The position numbers were made by a program, and so were the translations under genes. From contig CAINCE010000073.1 in the NCBI GenBank assembly GCA_903846945.1, positions 13,626 through 77,625 on the forward strand: a DNA stretch of 64,000 nucleotides, in the 5' to 3' direction. The notes beneath the pieces are model-generated. The model was not told the origin of the DNA. It made no database searches and was given only the letters and a program-made list of their open reading frames with translations. Source of the stretch: an uncultured bacterium (GTDB lineage Bacteria > Patescibacteriota > Minisyncoccia > Phycocordibacterales > PALSA-1337). Below are positions 7,595 through 39,459 of this stretch, in pieces (position 1 is the first letter of the stretch; each line of letters opens with the position of its first letter).

Positions 7595-8425
7595 TCACTT
7601 ACTACTTTTTAACTTTTTGTTCTCCACATTATTCAAAAAATTCTTCTTAGAAACCACTGATCGTCCTAACTTTTCTTCTAGCTTTCTGCGTGCTCCACCA
7701 GCAATGTCACCACCAGCTCGTGCGTCACTCTGTAATTTTGGTATACCTTTCGAATCTTCGTTTCGGTGTATCTCTGTTGTTGCGCGTTCACCGAGCATGT
7801 TAAATATGAGTTCGAAATCATCCATGTGATCACGTAGGTTTTCTCTTTCTAGACCTTTCAGTTCTTTGTACTCACTAGGAGTGACACCGAATGTAGCCTT
7901 GGATATTTCGGCAGTCAGGATTTCGTAGTCTCTCTGTTCCTTTGCTCCCCTATTCTTCCATTCATCGGTAAGTTCCTCGCGTATAACGATGCCACGCATG
8001 CGTTTTTCGATCCATGAGTCGCTGTAACCTTTGGATTTATACATGGCACGAGTCCTCTTGGTAGCAAGTTCGGGATCTTCGATCTCTTGGATGCGCTCGT
8101 ATCCAACTCTCGCGAGCCAACGTTTTAATGGTTCCAATTTTGGCGATGGGATAGACTGGATAATTCGAAATACACCTTCTGCATTAGCACAATCCGTTTC
8201 ATATTTTTTACCATCGGTAGCTTCCAATTTCAGTCCGTGACAAATTGTCACGACCTCACTTCCTTCTTCAATGAGTCTCTGTTTAAGTTTCCTCCAATAG
8301 GCTCCTGGGTCGTTACTGTTTGTAAGAATTCCGCAAATATCAACAAGAGATAACCACCACTCATTGTTATGAATGATTTTACGTATCCCTAAGCCTTGGA
8401 ATAATGCAATCTTTTGAATTTCCAT
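7595..8425 (-). CDS. DinD-like protein with Bro-N/KilA-N type N-terminal domain
   Basis: 276 aa; N-terminal NEWWLSLVDICGIL...AYWRKLKQRL; C-terminal half resembles DinD (YKSKGYSDSWIEKRMRGI, ATFGVTPSEYKELKGL). Paralog of 49916..50788. Confidence 0.55.
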   Translation of the reverse strand: MEIQKIALFQGLGIRKIIHNNEWWLSLVDICGILTNSNDPGAYWRKLKQRLIEEGSEVVTICHGLKLEATDGKKYETDCANAEGVFRIIQSIPSPKLEPLKRWLARVGYERIQEIEDPELATKRTRAMYKSKGYSDSWIEKRMRGIVIREELTDEWKNRGAKEQRDYEILTAEISKATFGVTPSEYKELKGLERENLRDHMDDFELIFNMLGERATTEIHRNEDSKGIPKLQSDARAGGDIAGGARRKLEEKLGRSVVSKKNFLNNVENKKLKSSK

Positions 8426-9756: not shown

Positions 9757-9840
9757 GAAAATGATATTAGCATGAATGTTTGGTGAGCGCAAATTTGTAT
9801 GCAATGCTACAATATCCTCATGTCGCACAATATTTCCGAA

Positions 9841-10743
9841 ATGAAACAGCAGTTTCTCGAATACATCGAGATAGAAAGAGGTCGTAGTGTAAAGACTGTG
9901 GAGAATTACGATCGATATTTAAGAAGGTTTATCGACCATACAAAGGTAAAGAAGGCTGGCGATGTCACTCCAGAGATGGTCCGTGAATTCAGATTGTGGC
10001 TAAATAGGCAGTCAACGGGCAATATCCGTTCAACGGGTGACACATTGAAGAAGAAGACTCAGAACTATTATTTGATCGCTCTACGGGCATTTCTAAAGTT
10101 TCTCGCAAAGAAAGGTGTGAAGTCGTTAGCTCCCGAGCAGATCGAGTTGGCAAAGGTTGGTGATAGATCACTCGATCTCATCACAACTGGAGAATTGGAG
10201 AGACTCCTCAAAGCTCCAGAAGGCAACGAACTACAGGTACTCCGAGATAGGGCCATTCTCCAACTACTATTTTCAACAGGTTTACGCGTATCTGAGCTCA
10301 CTTCCCTCTCATCTGACCTCGATCTTTCATCGGACGAATTCACCGTGCGAGGTAAAGGAGATAAAACCCGTGTGGTGTTCATGTCTGATGATGCGAAAGA
10401 TGCCCTGAAGAAGTATTTGGCGAAGCGTACTGATGTGGACGATGCGATGTTCGTGCGTATTCCAGGAAATGAGATGCGTGGTGTGAAAGGTGGAGCAGGG
10501 CTGACTCGTCGATCTATCGAAAGGATAGTAAAAAAGTATGCAGTGAAGGCTGGAATCTCGAAAAAAGTCACTCCTCATGTCATGCGTCACATGTTCGCGA
10601 CAGATCTATTGCGAAATGGTGCTGACCTCCGTTCTGTGCAAATGCTCCTCGGTCATGCGAATATCGGGACGACGCAGATATATACGCACGTGACTGACAG
10701 CGAACTCAAGAGAGTTCACAAGCAGTTCCATAACAAGAAGTAA
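9841..10743 (+). CDS. tyrosine recombinase XerC/XerD-like
   Basis: C-terminal [39 protein letters not shown] (R..H..R..Y catalytic residues); start taken at [10 protein letters not shown]. Confidence 0.85.
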
Positions 10744-14219: not shown

Positions 14220-14291
14220 GCCCTCGTGGTGAAATGGATATCATTACTGTCTTCGGAACAGTCGTTGGGGGTTCGAATCCCTCCGGGGGCA
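14220..14291 (+). tRNA. tRNA-Arg (anticodon TCG)
   Basis: Hand-folded 72-nt cloverleaf: acceptor GCCCTCG/CGGGGGC, D-loop with GG, anticodon stem ACTGT/ACAGT, loop CTTCGGA, T-arm GGGGG-TTCGAAT-CCCTC, discriminator A; no encoded CCA (ACAA follows). Confidence 0.75.
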
Positions 14292-14471
14292 CAAATCAAT
14301 AGGTCCGCTAGCGAGCCAACTGCTTGGCTCGCGTCTATGGATTCGAAAAGTCTGAGCATATTTCCAGCCATTTGGGTGGCTGGAAATGCGAAGACTGTAC
14401 CGTTCCCGTAGGGAAAGAATCCCGTAAGGAGGCGGGGTCGCAGGCGAGCATAGCAATGCGAGACCTGTGAC

Positions 14472-14490
14472 CGAATCCCTCCGGGGGCAC
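14472..14490 (+). repeat. 19-nt exact copy of the tRNA-Arg 3' end (cgaatccctccgggggcac), here followed by CA giving CACCA
   Basis: Identical to 14274..14292; no cloverleaf can be built around it, so it is a fragment or att-like direct repeat. Confidence 0.7.
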
Positions 14491-14787
14491 CAAAGGCCAC
14501 TTCTTGTTTCCTAATTCGCTTTGCTCATAAGGAAACAATAGACTTGTCCCGTAATAAGCAGATTTTGAATGATTCATGGCTATGTTAAGCCACATATTGA
14601 TAATTCTTAAAATTTGTCAATTTTACGGCTAAGGTAAGCCCTGATAAGTGGTTTTTTCCTTATTAGGGGACTTGTCTAATGTCGGGCACCCATTTCTTTC
14701 ACGTGAAACATCGAATCACTAGGTTTCATAATATGGCCCAATTATTCCCTCTTGAAAGTGAACAACTGCTAGTATATAATACAAGGC

Positions 14788-15525
14788 ATGCGAAAAGATA
14801 GAGAACAAGCTACAGTCCTTAGGAAGTCTGGGATGTCTTACTCAGACATCATTGCTCGTATGAGTGTACCTAGGAGTACTTTGTCGAAGTGGTTCCATGA
14901 CCAGAAGTGGTCAAATGATATCGCAATAGAAAGTGCTACTAGGGCAAGGAATAGTGGGGCGATCAGGTTCGCTGTTTTGAACACGGTTCGAAAGGGTCGT
15001 CTAGATAATCTACGCAAACAGGCGAGGCAAGATGCATTGCTAGATTTCGAGGATTTGAAATATCATCCACTATTTCTCGCTGGAGTTATGGCGTACTGGA
15101 TGCATGGTGATATAAAGTCCCCAAATAGGGTAAGTTACTCGAGTACTGATCCTGACAAGATCAGACTATTCAAATCGTTCCTAGAGAAGATCTGTGGCAT
15201 TGAGAAGCCTAAGGTGTGGATCAACCTCCCGAGAGGGAATTTAACATTTTTGGCAGAGTCATTTTGGGCAGAAAAGTGCAGTATGAGTGTGGATGACCTT
15301 GGAAAAACTATGATTTCTGGCGGATTTGATGGTTTTCCCAGTGGAAACACAACGATTTCAACTGATTCAAAGAGACAAAGGGTCATAAAGATGGGGAATA
15401 ATCACGGAGTTTGCAATATGGTTGTAAATAGTGCATACTTGAAAAATAAATTTTTGAAATGGGTGGAACTTTTGAAGGATGATCTGCTGAATGAGAGGTA
15501 TTTGAACGATGTTTCACAAATTTAG
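14788..15525 (+). CDS. hypothetical protein with N-terminal resolvase-type HTH
   Basis: 245 aa; LRKSGMSYSDIIARMSVPRSTLSKW HTH; weak LAGLIDADG-like stretch FLAGVMAYWMHGDIK (not confident). Lies between tRNA-Arg and tRNA-Gly. Confidence 0.4.
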   Translation: MRKDREQATVLRKSGMSYSDIIARMSVPRSTLSKWFHDQKWSNDIAIESATRARNSGAIRFAVLNTVRKGRLDNLRKQARQDALLDFEDLKYHPLFLAGVMAYWMHGDIKSPNRVSYSSTDPDKIRLFKSFLEKICGIEKPKVWINLPRGNLTFLAESFWAEKCSMSVDDLGKTMISGGFDGFPSGNTTISTDSKRQRVIKMGNNHGVCNMVVNSAYLKNKFLKWVELLKDDLLNERYLNDVSQI

Positions 15526-15578
15526 ACACGGTTCGTAGTGTAGTGTGTGAAAATCGAGTTCGAGAGTTGAAAATTCAT

Positions 15579-15649
15579 GCGGGTATAGTTTAATGGTAGG
15601 ACGCGTCCTTGCCAAGGACGAGTTGGGAGTTCGATTCTCCCTACCCGCA
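15579..15649 (+). tRNA. tRNA-Gly (anticodon GCC)
   Basis: 71-nt cloverleaf: acceptor GCGGGTA/TACCCGC, anticodon stem CGTCC/GGACG, loop TTGCCAA, T-arm GGGAG-TTCGATT-CTCCC. Confidence 0.8.
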
Positions 15650-15796
15650 CAATGATTCGTGAGCAGGCATGTTATGCCTGCGAATGGAACATCATTGAGA
15701 CGAGGGAGGGAGAAGCGAACGCCGGAGCGTGCGAGGCTAGTAAGCCGAGCCGCGAGGCGGTGCCCAGACCGAACGAGCGGGTAGCGAGTGAGAGTC

Positions 15797-15814
15797 GCGG
15801 GCGATTCTCCCTAC
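15797..15814 (+). repeat. 18-nt exact copy of the tRNA-Gly 3' end (gattctccctacccgcac)
   Basis: Direct repeat of 15632..15649; a second 13-nt repeat aatgattcgtgag occurs at 15650..15662 and 15869..15881. Confidence 0.7.
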
Positions 15815-16100
15815 CCGCACTACTTCGCAAATCAGCTAATCGCTGATTTGCTTCGAAGTGCAGGCACAATGATTCGTGAGGAATAGATGTCCTAAATAAA
15901 TGGCTTAAATTCGTGGAGTAAGGGACAGAACTGTGGATAAGTCTGTGGATAGTGTGTATAAGAGACGAATAGTATGGCTTATTATCGTCTTTTAGGTATT
16001 TTTATGCACCGCCTGCAAGCTAGCGAAGGAAAGGGATATTGGATAGTATGGCTTTATTGCAGAGCATTGAGCAATTACAAATTAATAGACCTTCAAAGTC

Positions 16101-16478
16101 ATGAGTACAAGATCAAAAGGAAATATCGGGGAAAATGTCGCTTGCATATTCCTTGAGAAAAGGGGATTCAAGATCGCTGTGAGGAATTATATGAAGAAAT
16201 GGGGTGAAATAGATATTATTGCTATAAAAGACAAAGTAGTCCATTTCTTTGAAGTAAAGAGTGTGACTTTTAACCCTGTGCATGACTCTGTATCTCATAA
16301 AGCTGAGGATAATGTTCACGGATTCAAAGTTAGACAGATCCGTAGGATGGTCGAGACATTCCTAGAAGAGACGAACAGGGGACTCGATGCGGAGTTTCAT
16401 TTTCATGTATTGTGTGTGTATTTGAACATGGAGACTAGGGGCGCGCGAGTGAAATGGATCAAGGATTTGGTTCTCTGA
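16101..16478 (+). CDS. YraN (UPF0102) family endonuclease
   Basis: 125 aa; GENVACIFLEKRGFKIAVRNY...GEIDIIA...VHFFEVKS matches YraN/UPF0102. Confidence 0.75.
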   Translation: MSTRSKGNIGENVACIFLEKRGFKIAVRNYMKKWGEIDIIAIKDKVVHFFEVKSVTFNPVHDSVSHKAEDNVHGFKVRQIRRMVETFLEETNRGLDAEFHFHVLCVYLNMETRGARVKWIKDLVL

Positions 16479-16570
16479 TTAGATAGCATGTCGGTTTGTC
16501 GGGCTCAATGAAGAATATTCAAACGGAAATAATTTGTAGAATCGCTATAGTGTGCTAACATGACAACATT

Positions 16571-16643
16571 CGGGGCGTGGTGTAACGGCTAACATGCCTC
16601 TTTTGGGAAGAGGTGACTCCGGGTTCGAATCCCGGCGCCCCGA
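16571..16643 (+). tRNA. tRNA-Pro (anticodon TGG)
   Basis: 73-nt cloverleaf with C1:G72 pair typical of bacterial tRNA-Pro; anticodon loop TTTGGGA; T-arm CCGGG-TTCGAAT-CCCGG. Confidence 0.8.
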
Positions 16644-16708
16644 CAAGGTAGATAATGTAAAATTGAACTTCCTCCACACTCTCCTACGCCCCCTCCGTCG
16701 CCGAGGCT

Positions 16709-17230
16709 ATGGAGGGCAAGAAGGCTTCGGAGGGCAAGAAAATCAAAATGGAAAGCTATAAAAAAATAATAAATTTCTTCGATAAGTTTGAGGATAGAGT
16801 TCGCGGACAGTTGAGTCGCTTTCCGATTCTGTACACTTTTATCGGTGGTATTGCCATCGTCTTGTTCTGGAGAGGTGTTTGGCATACGGCGGATATATTA
16901 CAGGCACAAGGAGGTATTTTAGGATGGCTGTTCTACGAACCGATAAACATGTTGATCGTTCTTGTCATATTGCTCGCTACAGGATTGTTCGTTTCATATT
17001 TCATCGGTGATACGATACTCATGAGCGGACTCAAGGGAGAGAAGAAGGCGACAGAGAGGACTGAGAGGGAGATCAAGGAAGAGGAAAAACAGATCCAGGA
17101 GGAAGAGGTGCAGATCAAGCAAGAACAGAAAGAACTGAAAGAAATAAAGGCGTCGATCAGTGACATGAAAGCGGAAGTTGATGAGATCAAGGAGATCGTG
17201 GAGAATGTCGAAAATCAGCATCACAAATAG
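16709..17230 (+). CDS. membrane protein with K/E-rich coiled-coil C-terminus, hypothetical
   Basis: 173 aa; two TM helices then a highly charged EEKQIQEEEVQIKQEQKELKEIK repeat region. Confidence 0.45.
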   Translation: MEGKKASEGKKIKMESYKKIINFFDKFEDRVRGQLSRFPILYTFIGGIAIVLFWRGVWHTADILQAQGGILGWLFYEPINMLIVLVILLATGLFVSYFIGDTILMSGLKGEKKATERTEREIKEEEKQIQEEEVQIKQEQKELKEIKASISDMKAEVDEIKEIVENVENQHHK

Positions 17231-17342
17231 ATTTGGTCCCTTACTAATTCGAGGATATTTTGAAATTACAAAAGACTTCGTGGCCAGTCTTGTTACAACG
17301 CAAAATTATTGCTAGCATTGACTTTGCTCTCAAACAAAACAT

Positions 17343-17413
17343 GCGGGATTAGTTAAATGGTATAATAACAGTTTTCCAAACTGTGGTTGGGAGTTCGATT
17401 CTCCCATCCCGCA
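17343..17413 (+). tRNA. tRNA-Gly (anticodon TCC)
   Basis: 71-nt cloverleaf: acceptor GCGGGAT/ATCCCGC, anticodon stem ACAGT/ACTGT, loop TTTCCAA, T-arm GGGAG-TTCGATT-CTCCC. Confidence 0.8.
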
Positions 17414-19965: not shown

Positions 19966-20005
19966 TTTGTGGACAGGTTGAAAGACCTGAAAAAACTTTC
20001 CTCCA

Positions 20006-20020
20006 CGCATTGAGTCAATG
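20006..20020 (+). terminator. hairpin GCATTGA-GT-CAATGC immediately upstream of HHR1
   Basis: Perfect 6-7 bp palindrome 3 nt before the ribozyme. Confidence 0.4.
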
Positions 20021-20022
20021 CG

Positions 20023-20075
20023 TTGCTTCTCGGAATGTGTATTCCGACTGATGAGTCTGAAAGGACGAAAAGCAA
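20023..20075 (+). ncRNA. hammerhead ribozyme, type III (HHR1)
   Basis: TTGCTTC / stem I TCGGAAT-GTGT-ATTCCGA / CTGATGAG / stem II GTCT-GAAA-GGAC / GAAA / AAGCAA; stem III 6 bp; predicted cleavage after UUC at 20029. Confidence 0.8.
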
Positions 20076-20153
20076 AATTCAGGACTTTAATATATTGGTT
20101 ACATACAATATTCTTCATAGTAACTTGGCGATATCATTTGTCGACAGCTTACT

Positions 20154-20346: not shown

Positions 20347-20368
20347 GCTCGTATTCCTAGATACGAGC
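20347..20368 (+). terminator. hairpin GCTCGTAT-TCCTAG-ATACGAGC immediately upstream of HHR2
   Basis: 8-bp perfect stem starting 5 nt after the stop of 20154..20342. Confidence 0.45.
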
Positions 20369-20370
20369 AA

Positions 20371-20418
20371 CTGTCTCGGAATATCGTTCCGACTGATGAG
20401 TCTGAAAAGACGAAACAG
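20371..20418 (+). ncRNA. hammerhead ribozyme, type III (HHR2)
   Basis: CTGTC / stem I TCGGAA-TATCG-TTCCGA / CTGATGAG / stem II GTCT-GAAA-AGAC / GAAA / ACAG; stem III ACAG:CUGU; cleavage after GUC at 20375. Confidence 0.8.
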
Positions 20419-20478
20419 AGTAGTTCTTCACATATTGTATTCATGTAGCTTGCGTCTATATCCTTGGTCGCAGACTAC

Positions 20479-20850
20479 ATGAATACAAACAACAAAGAGG
20501 TAGCCGCAAACTCTATAAAAGCGGTAGAGGCGTACAGGGCACAGATCGCCAATCTGCAGAGTCAAATCTGCAAATTGGAAGAGGCGGCCGCGGTCGCCAT
20601 GGAGACACTCGTCGGGGCGAAGGTTGCCGACGGCTGGAAGAAGTTTGAATACTATTCCAGCTACTACGGGTCGCATAGTGAGCTCGGTGAGGGTGATGAG
20701 GAGAGGACGCTCCTCTTTCACCCCAGTGTGGACTTGTCCACATGGGACGGTGTGTCGTTCTCGCATGGCCATCGTGGCCAGAGCGAGGAAAACGGGCGGT
20801 TCTGTAAGTGGCTCTCCGGTCTCCCGGAAGGTCACTACATCGAACTGTAG
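20479..20850 (+). CDS. hypothetical protein
   Basis: 124 aa from MNTNNKEV; coiled-coil N-terminus; follows HHR2; GC-rich. Confidence 0.4.
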   Translation: MNTNNKEVAANSIKAVEAYRAQIANLQSQICKLEEAAAVAMETLVGAKVADGWKKFEYYSSYYGSHSELGEGDEERTLLFHPSVDLSTWDGVSFSHGHRGQSEENGRFCKWLSGLPEGHYIEL

Positions 20851-20851
20851 T

Positions 20852-20956
20852 GATTTACCTGCTGTAACAGGTTGATTTAACCGGACGAGTCTTTACAGAG
20901 ATTCCTCCACTTCATTGAGCCGTATGAGTGAAAGATTCTCGTCGGTTCATAGAGTT
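20852..20956 (+). ncRNA. conserved structured RNA element, copy A (unclassified)
   Basis: About 105 nt near-identical to 22629..22733: hairpin ACCTG-CTGTAA-CAGGT; hairpin GACGAGTCTT-TACA-GAGATTC..; palindrome CTCAATTGAG; hairpin ATGAG-TGAAAGATT-CTCGT. Covarying base pairs between the two copies. Confidence 0.55.
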
Positions 20957-20978
20957 CGTTAAATGGGAGAAAAAAATT

Positions 20979-21140
20979 ATGGGTATGAACCTAGGTGGTG
21001 TGAAGGTGAAAGGCGGTTCTGGTGGGAAGCGGGGACACTCCGGGATGTGTCATTGGATGCCGACCGAGCAGGTAAAGGTAGTATCCAAGAAGGCCCGCCG
21101 CCGTGAAGATAAGTGCCTGGTTAAGCCTTCGGCCGAGTGA
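20979..21140 (+). CDS. small basic hypothetical protein
   Basis: 53 aa MGMNLGGVKVKGGSGGKRGHSGMCHW...; GGGAG 12 nt upstream. The track's 20928 GTG start lies inside the conserved RNA element. Confidence 0.3.
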   Translation: MGMNLGGVKVKGGSGGKRGHSGMCHWMPTEQVKVVSKKARRREDKCLVKPSAE

Positions 21141-21315
21141 TCGGCTTAGTAACACCTCTAACCAAGGTTGCCACAAAATTCCTCCTTCGCTCTAATGAGC
21201 TATGGAGGGACAAGCCGGTGGTGTAAATCAAGGTAAAGAGTTTTGTCCCCGTCTTTCTCAGAAAAGACGGAGAGCCTAGAGGAAGCAGAGCCTCACCGAG
21301 ATATATCTCTCGGTT

Positions 21316-21388
21316 CTGTCTCGGAATATCGTTCCGACTGATGAGTCCCTCTACATCCTATTCGGGGTGAGAGTGAAGGACGAAACAG
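21316..21388 (+). ncRNA. hammerhead ribozyme, type III with extended stem II (HHR3)
   Basis: CTGTC / TCGGAATATCGTTCCGA / CTGATGAG / extended stem II GTCC-CTCT-A-CATCC-TATTC-GGGTG-AGAG-TGAA-GGAC / GAAA / ACAG. Upstream hairpin CCGAGAT-ATAT-CTCTCGG at 21295..21312. Confidence 0.75.
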
Positions 21389-21410
21389 AGTTGGTCTTTA
21401 AAATCAAATT

Positions 21411-21674
21411 ATGCCAATGTTAAAAACCAATGTGGTGCCGTACAACAAGACGGCGAGCTGCAACCGGCAGCCAGTAAATGTCAACCATCAGCAGAAAATC
21501 GTGGTAGTCAATACACGGTGCGGTGATGGTCAGGAAGGGAAACACCAGACCCATCTGGACGCCATGGTCAAAGTCGAGGCCGAAAAGGGATTCAAAATCC
21601 TTCAGGCATCGACGGTGATCGTGCCAGTGAGTGCTGGGCTGCTCTTCTCTACGACGGTGGTGTTGGTGTCGTGA
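21411..21674 (+). CDS. hypothetical protein
   Basis: 87 aa; follows HHR3 after a conserved acagagttggtctttaaaat spacer. Confidence 0.35.
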   Translation: MPMLKTNVVPYNKTASCNRQPVNVNHQQKIVVVNTRCGDGQEGKHQTHLDAMVKVEAEKGFKILQASTVIVPVSAGLLFSTTVVLVS

Positions 21675-21765
21675 GCGGTGCAGGGTAGACAAGGCTGATG
21701 GTTCCTAGTAATCATTCTCGACCACGGAGTGCAGTGGTAGACGTGATCGCCCTACGGTAGTGGGT

Positions 21766-21796
21766 GCGTAATTCCGAGGGGAAGCTCCTCGGCGCC
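21766..21796 (+). repeat. motif GCGTAATTCCGAGGGGAAGCTCCTCGGCGC (hairpin)
   Basis: Near-identical copy on the minus strand at about 25266..25296; both sit between a gene end and a hairpin+HHR. Confidence 0.5.
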
Positions 21797-21814
21797 TGGT
21801 GAGCGGAAACTACT

Positions 21815-21834
21815 GGAAAGATGCAAATCTTTCC
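21815..21834 (+). terminator. hairpin GGAAAGAT-GCAA-ATCTTTCC immediately upstream of HHR4
   Basis: 8-bp perfect stem 2 nt before the ribozyme. Confidence 0.45.
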
Positions 21835-21836
21835 TT

Positions 21837-21909
21837 CTGTCGCGAAGTTGAACTTCGCCTGATGAGTCCCTCTACATCCTTTTCGGGATGAGAGTGAAGG
21901 ACGAAACAG
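21837..21909 (+). ncRNA. hammerhead ribozyme, type III with extended stem II (HHR4)
   Basis: CTGTC / stem I GCGAAGT-TGA-ACTTCGC / CTGATGAG / same extended stem II as HHR3 / GAAA / ACAG; followed by the same acagagttggtctttaaaat spacer. Confidence 0.8.
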
Positions 21910-21926
21910 AGTTGGTCTTTAAAATT

Positions 21927-22622
21927 ATGAAGCACGTAAATATGACCCCGCGGCAGTGGGGATTCAGTATTGAACCGTTTCCGGCCTTCCGGTCGGAGAT
22001 AGTCTATGGTCGGCACAAGCACGACCAACAGTTTCTCCCTGTTAAGGGAATATCTCCCGTTACCACATTTACTGTGGAAGGCGGAGGAGTCGTTCTCTAC
22101 AAGGGAACGGACTGTGTTCTGGCGCAAAAAACAGTCGCAGACTTTGATGATGTTCAGCGGAAAAAAGTCCCGTTCACATTGTCGCATGCGATATTCACGG
22201 TATCACCGCAGACTCTGCCGGAGAATCGCTTCCAGGTCATCAAGACCAAGGAGAAGGGAACCATCATGGTTGTACCTGGCGAGGACCTGACCAGACGATG
22301 CCTACTGTTCGCAGAGTGCAAGGGTGGGTTTCGTGGCGGCGTTGCACTCATCGGTGGGAGCAATTCAGCTGACGTCATCAAGAAGTGTCATGCCGGAGAT
22401 GCTTGCGATAGCTTGATGGCTGTTATCGCAATACTAGAGGTGGATCAGTCTATCGCATTTCATTCCTGGGGCAGGAGGAAGGACGAAGTCTACCGCCATG
22501 CTTGGGATGGTGAGACCATCAAGGTCGAGCATTATTCCATAGACGAATGGAACGTCAGGAGTGAGCTCATCACTGCCGATGTGGCACAGGCTCATGAAGC
22601 TCTTCCGGGCGACGGAAGTTGA
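21927..22622 (+). CDS. hypothetical protein
   Basis: 231 aa from MKHVNMTPRQWG; follows HHR4; no motif recognised. Confidence 0.45.
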   Translation: MKHVNMTPRQWGFSIEPFPAFRSEIVYGRHKHDQQFLPVKGISPVTTFTVEGGGVVLYKGTDCVLAQKTVADFDDVQRKKVPFTLSHAIFTVSPQTLPENRFQVIKTKEKGTIMVVPGEDLTRRCLLFAECKGGFRGGVALIGGSNSADVIKKCHAGDACDSLMAVIAILEVDQSIAFHSWGRRKDEVYRHAWDGETIKVEHYSIDEWNVRSELITADVAQAHEALPGDGS

Positions 22623-22628
22623 TAGTGG

Positions 22629-22733
22629 TATTTACCTGCTGTAACAGGTTGATTTTAACCAGACGAGTTTTTACAGAAACTCGTCTACTCAATTGAGCTG
22701 TACGAGTGAAAGATTCTCGTCGGTTCATAGAGT
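22629..22733 (+). ncRNA. conserved structured RNA element, copy B (unclassified)
   Basis: See copy A; hairpin here is GACGAGTTTT-TACA-GAAACTCGTC (the C:G pair in A is U:A in B) and ACGAG-TGAAAGATT-CTCGT (U:G in A becomes C:G in B). Confidence 0.55.
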
Positions 22734-22762
22734 GTTCGGTGAAATTTTGCAAAAAAGAAAAT

Positions 22763-23026: not shown

Positions 23027-23375
23027 TCGTAGGAAAGACTTCCAAAGGATCACTCTAACCTTCTCAAAAGAGTGTATTGTCACCGTAAGAACAATGGTGA
23101 GAGATTTCAAAACACCGTACGAAAGTGCGGTTTTTTCATAGTGAATAAGAGCGTTTTTTACATTGTCCCAAAAACGGAACCACCCCCTTTCGGGGGTTCT
23201 GTAAGCTTTATTGCCGTGAATATTACAGTGAATGCGTGCAAGTTGTGCTAGAGGTATCTTATGTGCTAACATATGCATACACAGAGACATTATCCGAACT
23301 GTCACCGGACGGTGGCTTGGTTGGGACAACCAACATAGGTAGTGTATCGGGAAATCGCCCTTCGGGGCTTTTTCT

Positions 23376-24032
23376 TTATTTAAATCGCCATTCATCCTCG
23401 ATATGTTTCCGAATGATCTTTTTGTAAATAATTCCATCTTGTTTGTTACCCTCATAACTCCTCCGTATGCTCCCAGCGATCATATCAGCCAATTGGATGA
23501 GCACGTTATCTTTTGAGTCTGAAAACTTCAAATTTGAAATCACCTTAATTCCATTTGAGTTAAGAGATTTTCGTAGGTATGATGAAAAATTCCTCCGGAA
23601 AGCCCTGTCTCCACTACCATCAAGCTTGATCTTTGCTTCTAGAATACTCATATCACTGTGTTTCAGTAACATCTTTATGGAATAACTATAAAATGAATTC
23701 TTGTCATTTTTTAACTCATCACTATGTAGGATGGTCTTGTCTATAACCAGTGTTCTAACTTTAAATGCAAACACGTTGATAGTATTCATGAAACCTAGAC
23801 GGACTTTTTTGTTTGACTTGTTAAACTTGAATTCCATCGTATCTGGAAATCCGATACTTCTCCTAAACTCTTTTATGGCCACGGCAACCTTTTCGGCTTC
23901 TAACGGATCGTCGAATATGACAGCGGCAATAACAAAAATCTTGCTCGATCCTCTTTCGAATTTGAATCCAGCATCACCGGAATCATCGATGAATACTAAA
24001 GTTTGCGAATTTTGTGTGTGTTTGCTAAGCAT
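23376..24032 (-). CDS. DUF3800 family protein
   Basis: 218 aa; LVFIDDSGDAGF at the N-terminus and LIQLADMIAGSI near the C-terminus are DUF3800 hallmarks; AT-rich gene inside a GC-rich island. Confidence 0.65.
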   Translation of the reverse strand: MLSKHTQNSQTLVFIDDSGDAGFKFERGSSKIFVIAAVIFDDPLEAEKVAVAIKEFRRSIGFPDTMEFKFNKSNKKVRLGFMNTINVFAFKVRTLVIDKTILHSDELKNDKNSFYSYSIKMLLKHSDMSILEAKIKLDGSGDRAFRRNFSSYLRKSLNSNGIKVISNLKFSDSKDNVLIQLADMIAGSIRRSYEGNKQDGIIYKKIIRKHIEDEWRFK

Positions 24033-24400
24033 ATCGTGGAACTATTATACTCTCGAAATATTGATTGGCTAGTGAGGACAAAAAATCCCCACGAGGCTAC
24101 GGATATAGACATAGGACTTAGTCGAGAAGCGGTGTTTAGAGGAGAGAGATTTTGCAATCACTCACACCGCCTCGCTACATAATCCGATATCATACCCATA
24201 GCCCCGCGGGGACTCGTGTTTAGACACTAATAATAACTCAATGAGCCTGTAAACCTCTAAATTTATAGGCTCAATAAAGTGGAGATTTTCTTGAAATCTC
24301 CAGAAAAGCACCGAGAAACCAATCTCGGAAACCATTATCGCTCCACTCTGCGATCGAGGAAAGTTTTAGAGGGTGACTTTCAACCTATTGACGTCAGCTA

Positions 24401-24940
24401 TTATACCGACGTCTTCTGGAGCCGCGCCATCGCGTGCTCCCACGCGACCGCAGCAGCGGTCGCATCGTACATGGGGTGGTGCGCCACCCCCGCGAACGGC
24501 ACCGCGATGCCGTTCTTTTTGTTATATGCGTCCACTGAGGACGCGTCCTCGCTCAGTGCGAGGAGCGCCGTGCCTAGGTCATGTAGGCACGGATAAGGGC
24601 CCTCGAAGGCCCGTTCGTCGAGATTTCTCTCGACGCAGCGGCGGAACAGCCCCGATTCCACGGGGCTACCGCAATGGGCGATCACAGTCGCCCCTACCTT
24701 TTGGGCCTGCCAAAAGGCCCAGAAGGCCTCTTCCAACTCCTCCGAAGAGGAGTGGGAGACCGGCATCCCCGCCAGAGCGGGGAGAACGTTTGCACGCACC
24801 CAGCCGTCCGACACGGCTGAGTCGGCGATCCGGCCCTCGAAGCGGGCCGTTTCCACACCGTCCACCCGGACGGTCGCGGCGATTGCGAATGACGGGCCAT
24901 ACAGCCCGTCAACTTCTGCGTCACAACTAAAGATTTTCAT
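24401..24940 (-). CDS. DEDDh-type 3'-5' exonuclease (DnaQ-like fold), putative
   Basis: 179 aa, GC-rich; IFSCDAEVDGL (Exo I D-x-E), AHCGSPVESGLF (Exo II-like), HHPMYDATAAA (Exo III H-x4-D); GAGG 13 nt upstream of ATG. Confidence 0.5.
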   Translation of the reverse strand: MKIFSCDAEVDGLYGPSFAIAATVRVDGVETARFEGRIADSAVSDGWVRANVLPALAGMPVSHSSSEELEEAFWAFWQAQKVGATVIAHCGSPVESGLFRRCVERNLDERAFEGPYPCLHDLGTALLALSEDASSVDAYNKKNGIAVPFAGVAHHPMYDATAAAVAWEHAMARLQKTSV

Positions 24941-24954
24941 AATATTCCTACCTC

Positions 24955-25135
24955 TCTATTCGTCCAACAATCTCTTTCTAATCACACATCGTGCGACTAC
25001 ATCCCTCCTCCAGGAATGCTCAACTGAGAAAAAAGACCACCGAAGTTTCGATTGGTAGAATGTATTCATTATGTTCGAGCTTATCTTCTGTAATGATAAT
25101 GAATACGTTCCACCAATCGATAGTAGTAGAAACAT
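24955..25135 (-). repeat. 181-bp conserved 5' leader, copy 1, upstream of the DEDDh exonuclease gene
   Basis: About 95% identical to 27186..27366; contains a roughly 24-bp imperfect hairpin (cgattggtggaacgtattcattat ... ataatgaatacattctaccaatcg). Confidence 0.7.
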
Positions 25136-25146
25136 ATGATATTTTT

Positions 25147-25197
25147 CTGTTTTCGTCCTTTCGGACTCATCAGTCGGGATACACATCCCGAGAACAG
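25147..25197 (-). ncRNA. hammerhead ribozyme, type III (HHR5, minus strand)
   Basis: Minus-strand read: CTGTTC / TCGGGA-TGTGTA-TCCCGA / CTGATGAG / GTCC-GAAA-GGAC / GAAA / AACAG; stem III 5 bp; cleavage after UUC. Preceded on the minus strand by hairpin GGAGAAGCTTTTGGTTAAAAGCTTCTCC (25199..25226). Confidence 0.75.
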
Positions 25198-25335
25198 TGG
25201 AGAAGCTTTTAACCAAAAGCTTCTCCATTTAACCTATGAAGTATTTTCCGCGTGCCTCATCATCACGCGCCGGGGAGCTTCCCCTCGGAATTACGCGGTA
25301 TGTTTATAGTCTTACCGATAAGACTTGAAGTGCTA

Positions 25336-25671: not shown

Positions 25672-25812
25672 GAATACATCTAAGACTCTAAGAGCCAACC
25701 TCCTGGGAGACCGGCTCAATAAAGTGGAGAAGCTTTTAACCAAAAGCTTCTCCATTTAACCTTGCGACGATTTATCCAGTAACGGAAAGGAAGTCGCTGT
25801 TCCTTTGTTGTA

Positions 25813-26424: not shown

Positions 26425-26785
26425 TTTAATGCCCTCCTTCTAGGGCATGTTTCCACAACTTGTTTCGCATGTGGATTGCGGTTCGAGAAGATCATTCTCT
26501 ATCAACCGTCAACATGGAAGTTGTTGGCTGAATAAAGCGGAGAAATTTACGTATTCTCCAATTGACTTTCGTCACGGCAAGCAACCACGCCTGCAACCCG
26601 ATCTAGGATTGACCTCCATCCTTGATCATTATAGGAGTATTCAGATTTGTCTTGCGACAGGTCTCATACACAAAACCTTTTTACTTTTTTTGACACGACC
26701 AGTTTGTCCCTCCGAAGCCTGTTGGGGCGAAGGAGGAATTTTGTCGCAACTATAGGCTATCCCTATAGGTTTTTACGTCCAGAGC

Positions 26786-27172
26786 TTAGTAGCTGTGGAC
26801 GAGACGGAAGCCCTTGAACGTGAAGATGAACTCCTTCTTCACGGTCCCGTCCGGCTGCGGGATGTCCTTAGACACCCGCGGTGTGACGCTCTCAACGAGC
26901 TCAGCGCCAGCCTGGCGTGCCAGCGCCTGCACAGCGCTAGCCAACTGAGCCTGACCCATAATGTGGGCCACGTCGCCGGCGGAAAATCCGCCGACCGCCA
27001 AGGCGATTTCCTCGGCGCGCTGGACAAACCAGTCACGACCTAGATTGGCGTCGTCCGGAACGATCAAGAGCTTCTTGTCGTTCACCTGGACCACTTCACG
27101 TCCGCCTTCGGACGCCGCGGTGATCTGTTCCGCCGTGGGGACGTGGGACATTATAAATGCAAAAGTTTTCAT
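26786..27172 (-). CDS. small hypothetical protein P2, paralog of 19582..19965
   Basis: 128 aa MKTFAFIMSHVPTAEQ...LLIVPDD...GAELVESVTPRVSKDIPQPDGTVKKE. Confidence 0.5.
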   Translation of the reverse strand: MKTFAFIMSHVPTAEQITAASEGGREVVQVNDKKLLIVPDDANLGRDWFVQRAEEIALAVGGFSAGDVAHIMGQAQLASAVQALARQAGAELVESVTPRVSKDIPQPDGTVKKEFIFTFKGFRLVHSY

Positions 27173-27185
27173 ATTTTTTCTACCA

Positions 27186-27366
27186 TCTATTCGTCCAATA
27201 ATCTCTTTCTAATCACACATTGTGCGACTACATCCCTCCTCCAGGAATGCTCAACTGAGAAAAGAGACTATCGAAGTTTCGATTGGTAGAATGTATTCAT
27301 TATGTTCGAGCTTATCTTCTGTAATGATAATGAATACGTTCCACCAATCGAGAGTAGTAGAAACAT
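27186..27366 (-). repeat. 181-bp conserved 5' leader, copy 2, upstream of P2
   Basis: See 24955..25135. Confidence 0.7.
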
Positions 27367-38385: not shown

Positions 38386-39459
38386 GTGCTGTTGGTATCG
38401 GAAATACTCGCGATATCAGTGGGGCAGACTTTGCGGGGGGGGGGCGCTCATAGTTGTGATTTTTATGATGTAATTTCTATCAAAAATTTACTGATAGCTT
38501 GGAAGGAATTTAGAAAGGGAAAAAGATCGAATGCCAATGTTGCTTCATTTGAACTTTGTTTGGAAGAAAATATATTTAACATGCATAGGATTCTTTCTAC
38601 AGGGACATGGAAACCAGACCCTTATAGAGTATCAGTAATTCAAGATCCGAAACGACGGACCATTCATGCGGCTAGTATACGAGATCGGGTTCTCTATCAA
38701 GCATTATACAGGAAATTGTATCCTGTATTTGATCAGCATTTTATCTACGATGTGTACTCCTCGCGAAATTTCAAGGGGACACACGCTGGTGTGGGAAGAT
38801 TTGCTGTATTTACTAGAAAAGTTTCGCAGAATTATACGAGAGCCGGATATGTATTGAAGTGTGATATACGAAAGTTTTTTGATTCTGTGGATCACCGTAT
38901 ATTGTTCCAACTCATTTCAAAGCGGATTTCGGATAAACGACTTTTGAGGTTGATTTACGATATTATCGATTCATTTCATCACGCTTCGAATAAAGGTTTA
39001 CCTCTTGGAAACGTGACTAGTCAGCTGTTTGCGAATATCTATATGAATGAATTTGATCAATTTGTTAAACACAGACTTAAGGCGAAATATTACATTCGCT
39101 ATTGCGATGACTTTATCATTGCGGAGGTGTCGCTAGAGATACTATTGAAGTATATAGAAACAATACGAGCAGTCCTCCATGAAGAATTGCTATTGGATCT
39201 ACATCCGAAAAAAGTTGAAATACGAAAGATACATAGCGGTATAGATTTTCTCGGCTACGTTTCTCTTCCACATTATGCAGTTATTCGAACTAGTACGAAG
39301 AATAGAATGCTTCGAAAGCTTCATGAAGCAAAAAAACAACGTGATTCGGGGGTCATTTCTAAAGCAAAATTTGATAGCATAGTTGCTTCATATTCTGGAA
39401 TGTTGAAGCATTGTAAGGGCAAGAAGATACTTGATCAGATCAAGGATATTATTAAGTAA
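38386..39459 (+). CDS. DGR reverse transcriptase
   Basis: 357 aa; domain 0 (NLLIAWKEFRKGK), motif 1-2 RRTIHAASIRDRVLYQAL, motif 4 LPLGNVTSQLFANIYMNEFD (the SQ variant typical of DGR RTs), motif 5 YIRYCDDFII (YxDD). A G10 tract sits at codons 17-20. Confidence 0.85.
   Translation: MLLVSEILAISVGQTLRGGGAHSCDFYDVISIKNLLIAWKEFRKGKRSNANVASFELCLEENIFNMHRILSTGTWKPDPYRVSVIQDPKRRTIHAASIRDRVLYQALYRKLYPVFDQHFIYDVYSSRNFKGTHAGVGRFAVFTRKVSQNYTRAGYVLKCDIRKFFDSVDHRILFQLISKRISDKRLLRLIYDIIDSFHHASNKGLPLGNVTSQLFANIYMNEFDQFVKHRLKAKYYIRYCDDFIIAEVSLEILLKYIETIRAVLHEELLLDLHPKKVEIRKIHSGIDFLGYVSLPHYAVIRTSTKNRMLRKLHEAKKQRDSGVISKAKFDSIVASYSGMLKHCKGKKILDQIKDIIK

Follow-up and report, generated by a model that had tools for sequence, protein, structure and literature searches.

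The window examined here, the whole 64,000-nucleotide (nt) stretch of contig CAINCE010000073.1, contains an island made of two convergent strings of genes, each of which diverges from a TrmB-family gene and has an MJ1673-like gene first. An initial annotation had pointed to two repeats in this island, lying between unrelated genes, as a structured RNA. Both repeats are real, but the window holds exactly five copies of the element (here copies A to E), all within one 8-kb island. Copies A and B, the pair first reported, lie on the forward strand as claimed and are identical in 96 of 110 aligned columns (approximately 87%), with identical blocks of 26 and 29 nt that occur at only these two sites in the window, where none was expected (100 shuffles). 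Copy A starts at the final base of the stop codon (20848–20850) of a gene for 123 amino acids (aa), and copy B starts 4 nt past the stop codon of a 231-aa gene; the genes flanking the two copies are indeed unrelated to each other and have no Pfam family. The features that bear on the element are listed below, where P1, P2, and the conserved hairpin (P3) are its three hairpins in 5′ to 3′ order, R1 is the covariance model built from copies A and B, and R2 is a second, later model.

20850–20958, + strand: copy A, whole element (cmsearch; R1 128.3 bits, R2 95.0 bits)
20857–20872, + strand: P1 hairpin of copy A, ACCUG-CUGUAA-CAGGU (fold; the P1 helix covaries in the family)
20883–20908, + strand: P2 hairpin of copy A, 11 bp, loop UACA (fold)
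20893–20898, + strand: kissing loop of copy A, UUACAG, complementary to the P1 loop CUGUAA at 20862–20867 (fold, clade covariation)
20909–20955, + strand: conserved hairpin of copy A (ACUU/GAGU helix, internal loop CAU/UA, UGAG.../...UUCA helix, variable upper stem)
20954–20963, + strand: degenerate boxA-like string of copy A, GUUCGUUAAA (read from the sequence)
22627–22736, + strand: copy B, whole element (cmsearch; R1 136.9 bits, R2 100.1 bits)
22634–22649, + strand: P1 hairpin of copy B (fold)
22661–22686, + strand: P2 hairpin of copy B (fold), with UUACAG at 22671–22676 pairing with the P1 loop at 22639–22644
22687–22733, + strand: conserved hairpin of copy B, ACUC/GAGU base (covariance model, family alignment)
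22734–22744, + strand: degenerate boxA-like string of copy B, GUUCGGUGAAA (read from the sequence, box survey)
24233–24335, − strand: copy C, diverged, between a 179-aa gene and a DUF3800 gene (R1 33.6 bits; R2 68.8 bits, E = 6e-11)
25682–25776, − strand: copy D, diverged, after a 203-aa gene (R1 30.7 bits; R2 55.9 bits)
26493–26588, − strand: copy E, most diverged, after a 128-aa MJ1673-like gene (R2 39.6 bits, E = 5e-5)
20022–20076, 20368–20421, 21313–21391, and 21834–21912, + strand: type III hammerheads (RF00008; Rfam search)
25145–25199, − strand: type III hammerhead replacing the conserved hairpin, not a copy of the element (Rfam, 37.6 bits)

Both forward-strand copies fold into the three hairpins, at −34.4 kcal/mol (z = −3.75) for copy A and −40.6 kcal/mol (z = −4.96) for copy B. 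Between them, P2 carries, as had been claimed, compensatory changes, namely two double changes (G-C to A-U and C-G to U-A), together with one change from C.C to C-G and one from G.U to G-C; the U.G to C-G swap in the second reported hairpin, here P3, was likewise found, and the ACCUG-CUGUAA-CAGGU hairpin is present in both copies. The string CUCAAUUGAG, reported as a palindrome, is one in copy B but not in copy A, and makes up the 5′ side of the basal helix that the family conserves. The 3′ ends of the two copies lead into the degenerate boxA-like strings GUUCGUUAAA and GUUCGGUGAAA; their supposed overlap with a ribosome-binding site was refuted, the GGGAG of copy A lying at 20965–20969, beyond the element. 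Covariation between two copies is anecdotal by itself, and it becomes strong with the 140 distinct family members considered below.

The repeats are members of a large, apparently undescribed Patescibacteria family of intercistronic structured RNA elements. Besides copies C and D, R1 gave a weaker match to copy E (26493–26585), in which the conserved helix has a compensatory change from G-C to C-G, and in genomes of Parcubacteria it matched beside genes homologous to the 231-aa neighbour; what the R1 matches have in common is a hairpin with CC at its end, then ACUUUAUUGAG, a variable hairpin, and YUCAUAGAGU. A search of species-representative genomes with the core pattern gave 48 loci, approximately 17 being expected by chance. 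The loci confirmed by the model came from Wolfe-, Taylor-, Nomura-, and Saccharibacteria, Paceibacterota, unclassified metagenome-assembled genomes (MAGs), and one MAG labelled Bdellovibrionales (L048), and none of the 48 that came from the remaining phyla was confirmed. A modified pattern yielded 99 loci in metagenomes, and R2 gave 151 matches at E ≤ 1e-3 from 80 sources, of which the named ones are nearly all Patescibacteria. Up to five or six co-oriented copies occur per locus, and near-identical strains have the same copies. In viral contigs, the exact blocks of copies A and B had no match and a degenerate pattern had three matches, none of them confirmed by the model; blastn of the island against phage records also gave no match.

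The family bears directly on whether the repeats are only a recent DNA duplication or a conserved coding N-terminus, the GTG-initiated MKDSRRFIE frame, which had been named as the outcomes that would undo the RNA reading. The first is countered by more than 140 distinct copies in many lineages, retrieved by the proposed route of a model built from the two copies and a wider search, and by stems that covary among these homologs. As to the second, the GTG frame is open into the downstream open reading frame (ORF) in both copies A and B, but the frame is not conserved in the family, the conserved strands contain UGA and UAG in two of three reading frames, the lengths of the conserved hairpin (39–64 nt) show no preference for multiples of 3, and just 3 of 46 copies fall within an ORF of at least 35 aa. 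Both explanations are refuted.

In the alignment of the 140 distinct sequences, 92.5% of cells were standard-paired, compared with 40–47% when the partners were slid, and double changes were found in 30 of 32 pairs, with a covariation score of 0.61 compared with approximately 0.1 for slid partners; all four helices showed covariation. Because this alignment had been fitted to the model, the test was repeated, alignment-free, on 39 ungapped hairpins of exactly 41 nt, in which 94% of cells were paired compared with 31–45% after sliding. RNAalifold, unaided, returned the same fold from this set, ((((...((((((..((((....))))..))))))..)))). The best 20 pairs by mutual information were all modelled pairs, and mutual information gave no additional long-range pairs. 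Furthermore, G.U pairs are common on the sense strand, indicating that the gene strand is the folding strand. The claim of a structured RNA is thus borne out by family covariation, the ungapped test, and G.U pairing, which together show pairing under selection on the sense strand.

The conserved hairpin consists of a basal helix (A-U, C-G, U-A, U.G), a conserved 3 × 2 internal loop (5′-NAU / 5′-UA), and an upper helix that begins with U-A, G-C, A-U, and G.U and continues with variable pairs; the register of the core was set by covariation, the first pair of the upper stem changing from U-A to C-G. The upper stem is 11–12 bp long, opens with UGAG/YUCA, and is usually capped by a tetraloop. Typical hairpins are 40–47 nt long, with a length peak at 41 nt and a median of 43 nt with 17 bp, and in 97 of the 140 copies the apical loop is 11–12 nt away from the internal loop, a ruler-like constraint on size. 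The 58 copies that lie outside both bait patterns keep the core positions at approximately 75–98%, so that the conservation is not an artefact of the search.

The 5′ domain is variable. P2 always abuts the core, while its sequence is free to vary, with covariation; its loops reach 28 nt and are conserved within subtypes, and the form of P1 depends on the subtype. In the subtype of copies A and B, the loops of P1 (CUGUAA) and P2 (UUACAG) are complementary and form a 6-bp kissing interaction. In 20 members of this clade, picked by P2 stem and aligned with MAFFT, the six inter-loop pairs were 95.8% paired, with double changes in four of the six, including the variants CCGCAA:UUGCGG and CUGCAA:UUGCAG. 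Across all subtypes, complementarity between the P1 and P2 loops was not significant (12.8% at p ≤ 0.05). The kissing interaction is thus a feature of one subtype and is well supported there. Some other subtypes combine an A-rich P2 loop (ACUUAAAACAC) with a putative pairing upstream, AGGUA...UACCU, and further ones have a GCGAC...GUCGC hairpin with a conserved loop.

The element had not been matched to any known consensus, and this was borne out by cmsearch with Rfam, in which no family reached its gathering score on the element or matched it credibly at permissive E-values; the search covered 10 kb of the window at E ≤ 10, four array loci at E ≤ 5, and 20 loci at the gathering score. Within these scopes, the twister, twister-sister, pistol, hatchet, hepatitis delta virus-like, and hairpin ribozyme models did not match the copies, and the hammerhead model at E ≤ 10 found the five hammerheads of the region and nothing on the element. 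Like the RAGATH and DUF3800 motifs (Weinberg et al. 2017, PMC5737381), the element has a complex conserved structure and lies beside hammerheads and DUF3800 genes, but their covariance models give no match to it at E ≤ 10; the matches to DUF3800-IX (23284–23352) and DUF3800-V (L043) lie elsewhere in their loci, off the element. A match to group II intron domain V (RF00029) scored 17.8 bits (E = 9.5), short of the gathering score of 40, and is attributable to chance. Domain V is a 34-nt helix with an AGC triad, a bulge on the 3′ strand, and a GNRA loop, whereas the bulge of upper P3 that resembles it is on the 5′ strand, in a part that varies across the family. Readings of the core as a K-turn, loop E, or T-loop were rejected by inspection, the required G.A pairs or the consensus being absent, and TTGAGY...TAGAGT was rejected as a sigma-70 promoter, its spacer being 23–40 nt by direct count. 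In the literature searched, there was no paper on the element, its sequence, or hammerheads or ribozymes of Patescibacteria and the candidate phyla radiation, and nothing relevant on integrons with attC in Patescibacteria.

Throughout the family, the element separates accessory ORFs that run in its own direction and read as one operon. It starts approximately 0–60 nt past the upstream stop codon, while its distance to the next ATG varies from approximately 0 to more than 200 nt. With this variable distance and no overlap with a ribosome-binding site, a simple translational operator, one of the roles first considered, was not borne out. The genes around it vary widely and mostly lack a known function, a few of them encoding GNAT acetyltransferases, TerC, and DUF3800 proteins.

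An intrinsic terminator, formed by P2 and a U-rich tract and followed by a leader hairpin of the next gene, was also considered. A lenient scan did flag P2 with CUUUAUUGAG, but in copies C and D only. The tract ACUUNAUU has at most five U in 8 nt, often fewer, whereas the clear terminator of the window (23114–23137) has a run of six U. Moreover, the tract is invariant in sequence and covaries with the conserved downstream strand with which it pairs, and the long P2 loops are conserved within subtypes. This explanation accounts for too little and is highly improbable.

The association with hammerheads that had been noted was confirmed. The five hammerheads of the window score 37–42 bits, just under the Rfam gathering score of 48.5, and our own hammerhead descriptor recovered all five. 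With this descriptor, the motif loci (548 kb) yielded 35 hammerhead-like sites, 34 of which share the strand of the closest motif, whereas the control loci from chance hits (161 kb) yielded none. A hairpin lies directly 5′ of all five window hammerheads, and likewise in the family table; the hammerheads in this slot keep their catalytic core, and a boxA-like box (AGUUCUUUGAA) comes within a few bases after 20 of 31 hammerhead-like sites and after most of the five in the window. The two kinds of RNA also replace each other. Copy D and the hammerhead at 25145–25199 have 41 nt of upstream sequence in common, including an identical hairpin (P2 of copy D) and CCACU, and then diverge. The related strain L075 lacks the window segment 24286–25195, a hammerhead-led cassette, and in it the hairpin that precedes the hammerhead is fused directly to the core and P3 of copy C, giving an intact element. 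Synteny with L029, L057, and L075 breaks at the P2/core junction of copy C (window 24270–24285), and additional strain comparisons break at the P2/core junction or at the hammerhead start. These breakpoints indicate that P1–P2 travels with the upstream gene, and the conserved hairpin or the hammerhead with the downstream gene. The element and the type III hammerhead are thus interchangeable in the same slot, where either one lies on the same strand with a hairpin on its 5′ side and a boxA-like box on its 3′ side. Like the type III hammerhead (RF00008), the element is intercistronic and on the gene strand; unlike it, the element has no CUGANGA or GAAA core and has a two-way internal loop rather than a three-way junction.

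Some further observations concern the hammerheads themselves. In L005, two tandem hammerheads 1 nt apart (7834–7886 and 7888–7962, + strand) lie upstream of an 80%-identical homolog of the 231-aa gene of the window. Located 20–40 nt upstream of hammerheads is a repeat without an Rfam match, GUAAUUCCGAGGGGAAGCUCCYCGGCGC followed by CUGGUGAGCGGAAAC, which was found at approximately 21765–21815 (+) and 25305–25250 (−) and in L098, L121, L140, and L068; in other loci its second part is CUGACGAGCSGAAACYGUUGG. The repeat contains a string resembling a hammerhead core. Directly 5′ of the hammerhead at 20022, CCUCCACGCAUUGAGUCAAUGCGU (approximately 19998–20021, + strand) resembles a shortened CCACUUUAUUGAG...GAGU core.

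A boxA-like box, AGUUCUUUGAAAA, was found 0–6 nt downstream of the conserved hairpin in approximately half of the copies, with the consensus A-G-U-U-C-U-U-U-(G/A)-A-A-A, that is, AGUUCUUU(G/A)AAA. A strict match within 30 nt was found in 34 of 140 copies, against 0.0036 expected per 30-nt window (approximately 67-fold over background), at offsets of −1, where it overlaps GAGU, or +4/+5; a loose match was found in 71 of 139 copies. The degenerate box of copies A and B accounts for their identity reaching past the hairpin. The 5′ core CCACUUUAUUGAG was considered as a boxA as well and rejected; it is base-paired and misfits GYUCUUUAANA outside CUUU. The published consensus, GYTCTTTAANA, is that of gamma-proteobacteria (PMC5725501), and boxA elements outside rRNA are known from clustered regularly interspaced short palindromic repeat (CRISPR) arrays, which they protect from Rho (PMC7665894). 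No rRNA genes, which could have provided the organism's own boxA, were found in the fetched loci, and a natural link between hammerheads and boxA was not reported in the literature searched. An extra AUUCUGAUGUUCUUGAGAACAUCAGAAU-like hairpin lies between the element and the box in L049, L061, L081, L097, L006, L098, and L141.

The element resembles operon hammerheads, the boxB–boxA arrangement of rRNA (rrn) operons, RNase III signals of phage T7, and attC repeats, and is a member of none of these groups. The copies probably mark where a long transcript is cut or made termination-resistant. Since hammerheads in this position retain an intact catalytic core, a cut in the nascent RNA just before the box seems to be required there. 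Considering these results, we propose the following scenario, to which we give a probability of roughly 45%. The element may act on the nascent polycistronic RNA as a co-transcriptional punctuation site, at which we infer a cut. The conserved hairpin would be recognised and cut near the internal loop, just 5′ of the box; P1–P2 would be left on the upstream cistron as a protective 3′ structure, and the downstream cistron with its box would be uncoupled from upstream decay and from Rho.

We consider a host RNase a more likely cutter than the RNA itself. That it is a conserved endoribonuclease of the RNase III type is a narrower and rather doubtful suggestion, favoured by a plain hairpin with a fixed loop-to-loop distance, by the free recombination of P2 and P3, and by the confinement of the family to one lineage. 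The geometry of RNase III signals was found in the element, namely a helix of approximately two turns with an internal loop at a fixed 11–12 bp from the apical loop. The RNase III signals of T7 early mRNA (R1.1 type) are conserved intercistronic hairpins of approximately two turns with an asymmetric internal loop, and the cut leaves a 3′ hairpin on the upstream mRNA. The intercistronic, conserved two-turn hairpin is common to these signals and the element, whereas the sequences are unrelated and the element is conserved far beyond the needs of RNase III.

Several observations weigh against the proposed scenario. RNase III is not known to depend on a sequence this conserved, and the conserved nucleotides are mostly helical, as they are where a protein binds without cutting. 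Approximately half of the copies, A and B among them, lack the box or have a degenerate one, and the box is a candidate NusB/NusE site by resemblance. In addition, L029 and L096 have a hammerhead 25 nt past an element, which would be redundant if both cut, although hammerheads also occur in tandem (L005).

The interchange with hammerheads also raises the possibility that the element is itself a new class of self-cleaving ribozyme, in which P2 and the conserved hairpin, with tertiary contacts from the 5′ domain, would form an active site. Such a ribozyme would take the place of the hammerhead 5′ of boxA, and cutting with Nus loading would insulate the cassettes from Rho and from upstream decay. 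The slot common to both RNAs, the natural swap with a hammerhead, the covarying kissing loop, the pseudoknot-like or A-rich loops of other subtypes, and the strongly conserved internal loop are consistent with this idea, and twister-sister, pistol, and hatchet were discovered through a like association (PMC5737381). However, the sole universal part of the element is a plain hairpin with a 3 × 2 internal loop beside a second hairpin. No natural ribozyme is known to be so simple. P2 and P3 swap freely between copies, which implies that no co-adapted tertiary contact joins their variable parts, and no extra long-range covariation was detected. Restriction to a single lineage is as expected for dependence on a lineage-specific protein, and the nearby hammerheads of L029 and L096 argue against self-cleavage as well. 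Both the ribozyme class and its proposed role as an insulator are accordingly unlikely.

Alternatively, the conserved hairpin may not be cut at all, and may bind a protein or RNA polymerase as a partner of the boxA-like box, in the manner of boxB or of EAR and put RNAs, loading a termination-resistant complex in each intergenic region. We take the string GTTCTTTGAAAACT of the 16S–23S spacer of Mycoplasma, the same as in the box, to be the spacer boxA. It is a conserved block in that spacer, where it served as a primer for polymerase chain reaction (PMC4312986), and the rrn leader has the order boxB–boxA–boxC (PMC10250234); both speak for this alternative, as do the fixed 0–6 nt offset of the box after the hairpin, the placement of conserved nucleotides in the helix and internal loop, as in protein-binding sites, and the resemblance of P2 with CUUUAUU to a weak terminator, which a complex of this kind would override. 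As in rrn and lambda nut sites, a hairpin lies immediately 5′ of a boxA-like GYUCUUU(A/G)AA box and is repeated along a long transcription unit. The element differs from those sites in its hairpin of 40–47 nt with a conserved base and internal loop, its pseudoknotted 5′ domain, its location between protein genes, and the missing or degenerate box in half of the copies. Furthermore, the box often begins inside the basal helix, with its first two bases paired (offset −1), and the slot, whose hammerheads have intact catalytic cores, seems to require cutting. We regard a non-cleaving role as a serious rival, though improbable to a degree similar to that of a ribozyme.

The arrays also recall integrons, and a DNA-level element, either an integron-like recombination site or a selfish intergenic repeat with hairpins in single-stranded DNA, was considered. 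Like attC sites and Vibrio cholerae repeats, the element is a structured repeat of approximately 100 nt that follows each of the small, co-oriented cassette genes; the functions of most of these genes are not known, GNAT genes are among them, and cassette indels are bounded by repeats. The arrays are co-oriented, as promoterless cassettes would be, with up to five to six copies per locus, each just past a stop codon. Where strains differ by the gain or loss of a cassette, the difference stops exactly at the P2/core junction, at the common string UCUCCACU, and gene conversion between copies is evident, copy A of L029 being 98% like copy B of the window. However, homologous recombination between repeats would give the same breakpoints at a conserved string of 8–15 nt. 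The element ends in ACUUNAUUGAG and YUCAUAGAGU, without R or L boxes (RYYYAAC/GTTRRRY), and has three hairpins rather than the single bulged hairpin of attC. It is interchangeable with a ribozyme, which acts on RNA. No recombinase was found among the 59 ORFs directly flanking copies, and the only tyrosine recombinase of the window (9799–10740, + strand) is of the Xer type and scores 124.6 bits against a cut-off of 265 for TIGR02249. A DNA-level site is less likely because of the loop–loop pairing, the G.U pairs that abound on the sense strand only, and the absence of attC boxes and of the integron integrase IntI, and we consider it quite improbable, though less so than a terminator.

The proposed punctuation role would link RNA cutting with antitermination and would bear on an open question, the function of bacterial hammerheads in operons, in that the tie of both RNAs to a boxA-like box suggests a testable role for hammerheads in which nascent RNA is cut just before Nus factors load. 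If the element cleaves itself, it represents a new ribozyme class; if a protein cuts or binds it, it is a new recognition site and could help to identify the protein in question. Patescibacteria account for a large part of bacterial diversity, and to our knowledge almost nothing is known of how their gene expression is controlled; a common, conserved, and complex element that punctuates their accessory-gene operons is relevant to this control, and modular cassette swapping at the core is of interest for the plasticity of their genomes.

Other features of the window were recorded alongside the element. A DUF3800-IX RNA (RF02968) at 23284–23352 on the + strand (43.1 bits; gathering score 36.8) lies just past the 3′ end of, and on the strand opposite to, the DUF3800 gene at 23376–24032 (− strand), and this pairing of RNA and gene recurs in L029 and L057; a DUF3800-V RNA lies in L043. 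A repeated non-coding element, ACAAAAUUCCUCCUUCGC...GGAGGGACAA..., is approximately 80% identical between the convergent strings (21167–21246, + strand; 26670–26750, − strand). A repeated leader of approximately 200 nt (24935–25226 and 27167–27365, − strand) lies ahead of the 179-aa and 128-aa genes, and strain L123 has a different ORF between the conserved leader and trailer modules. Elsewhere in the window, a reverse transcriptase gene (38386–39456, + strand) contains RVT_1 and has a group-II-like score of 144 bits, under the cut-off of 300, and four tRNA genes are interspersed with ORFs at 14220–17413 (+ strand).

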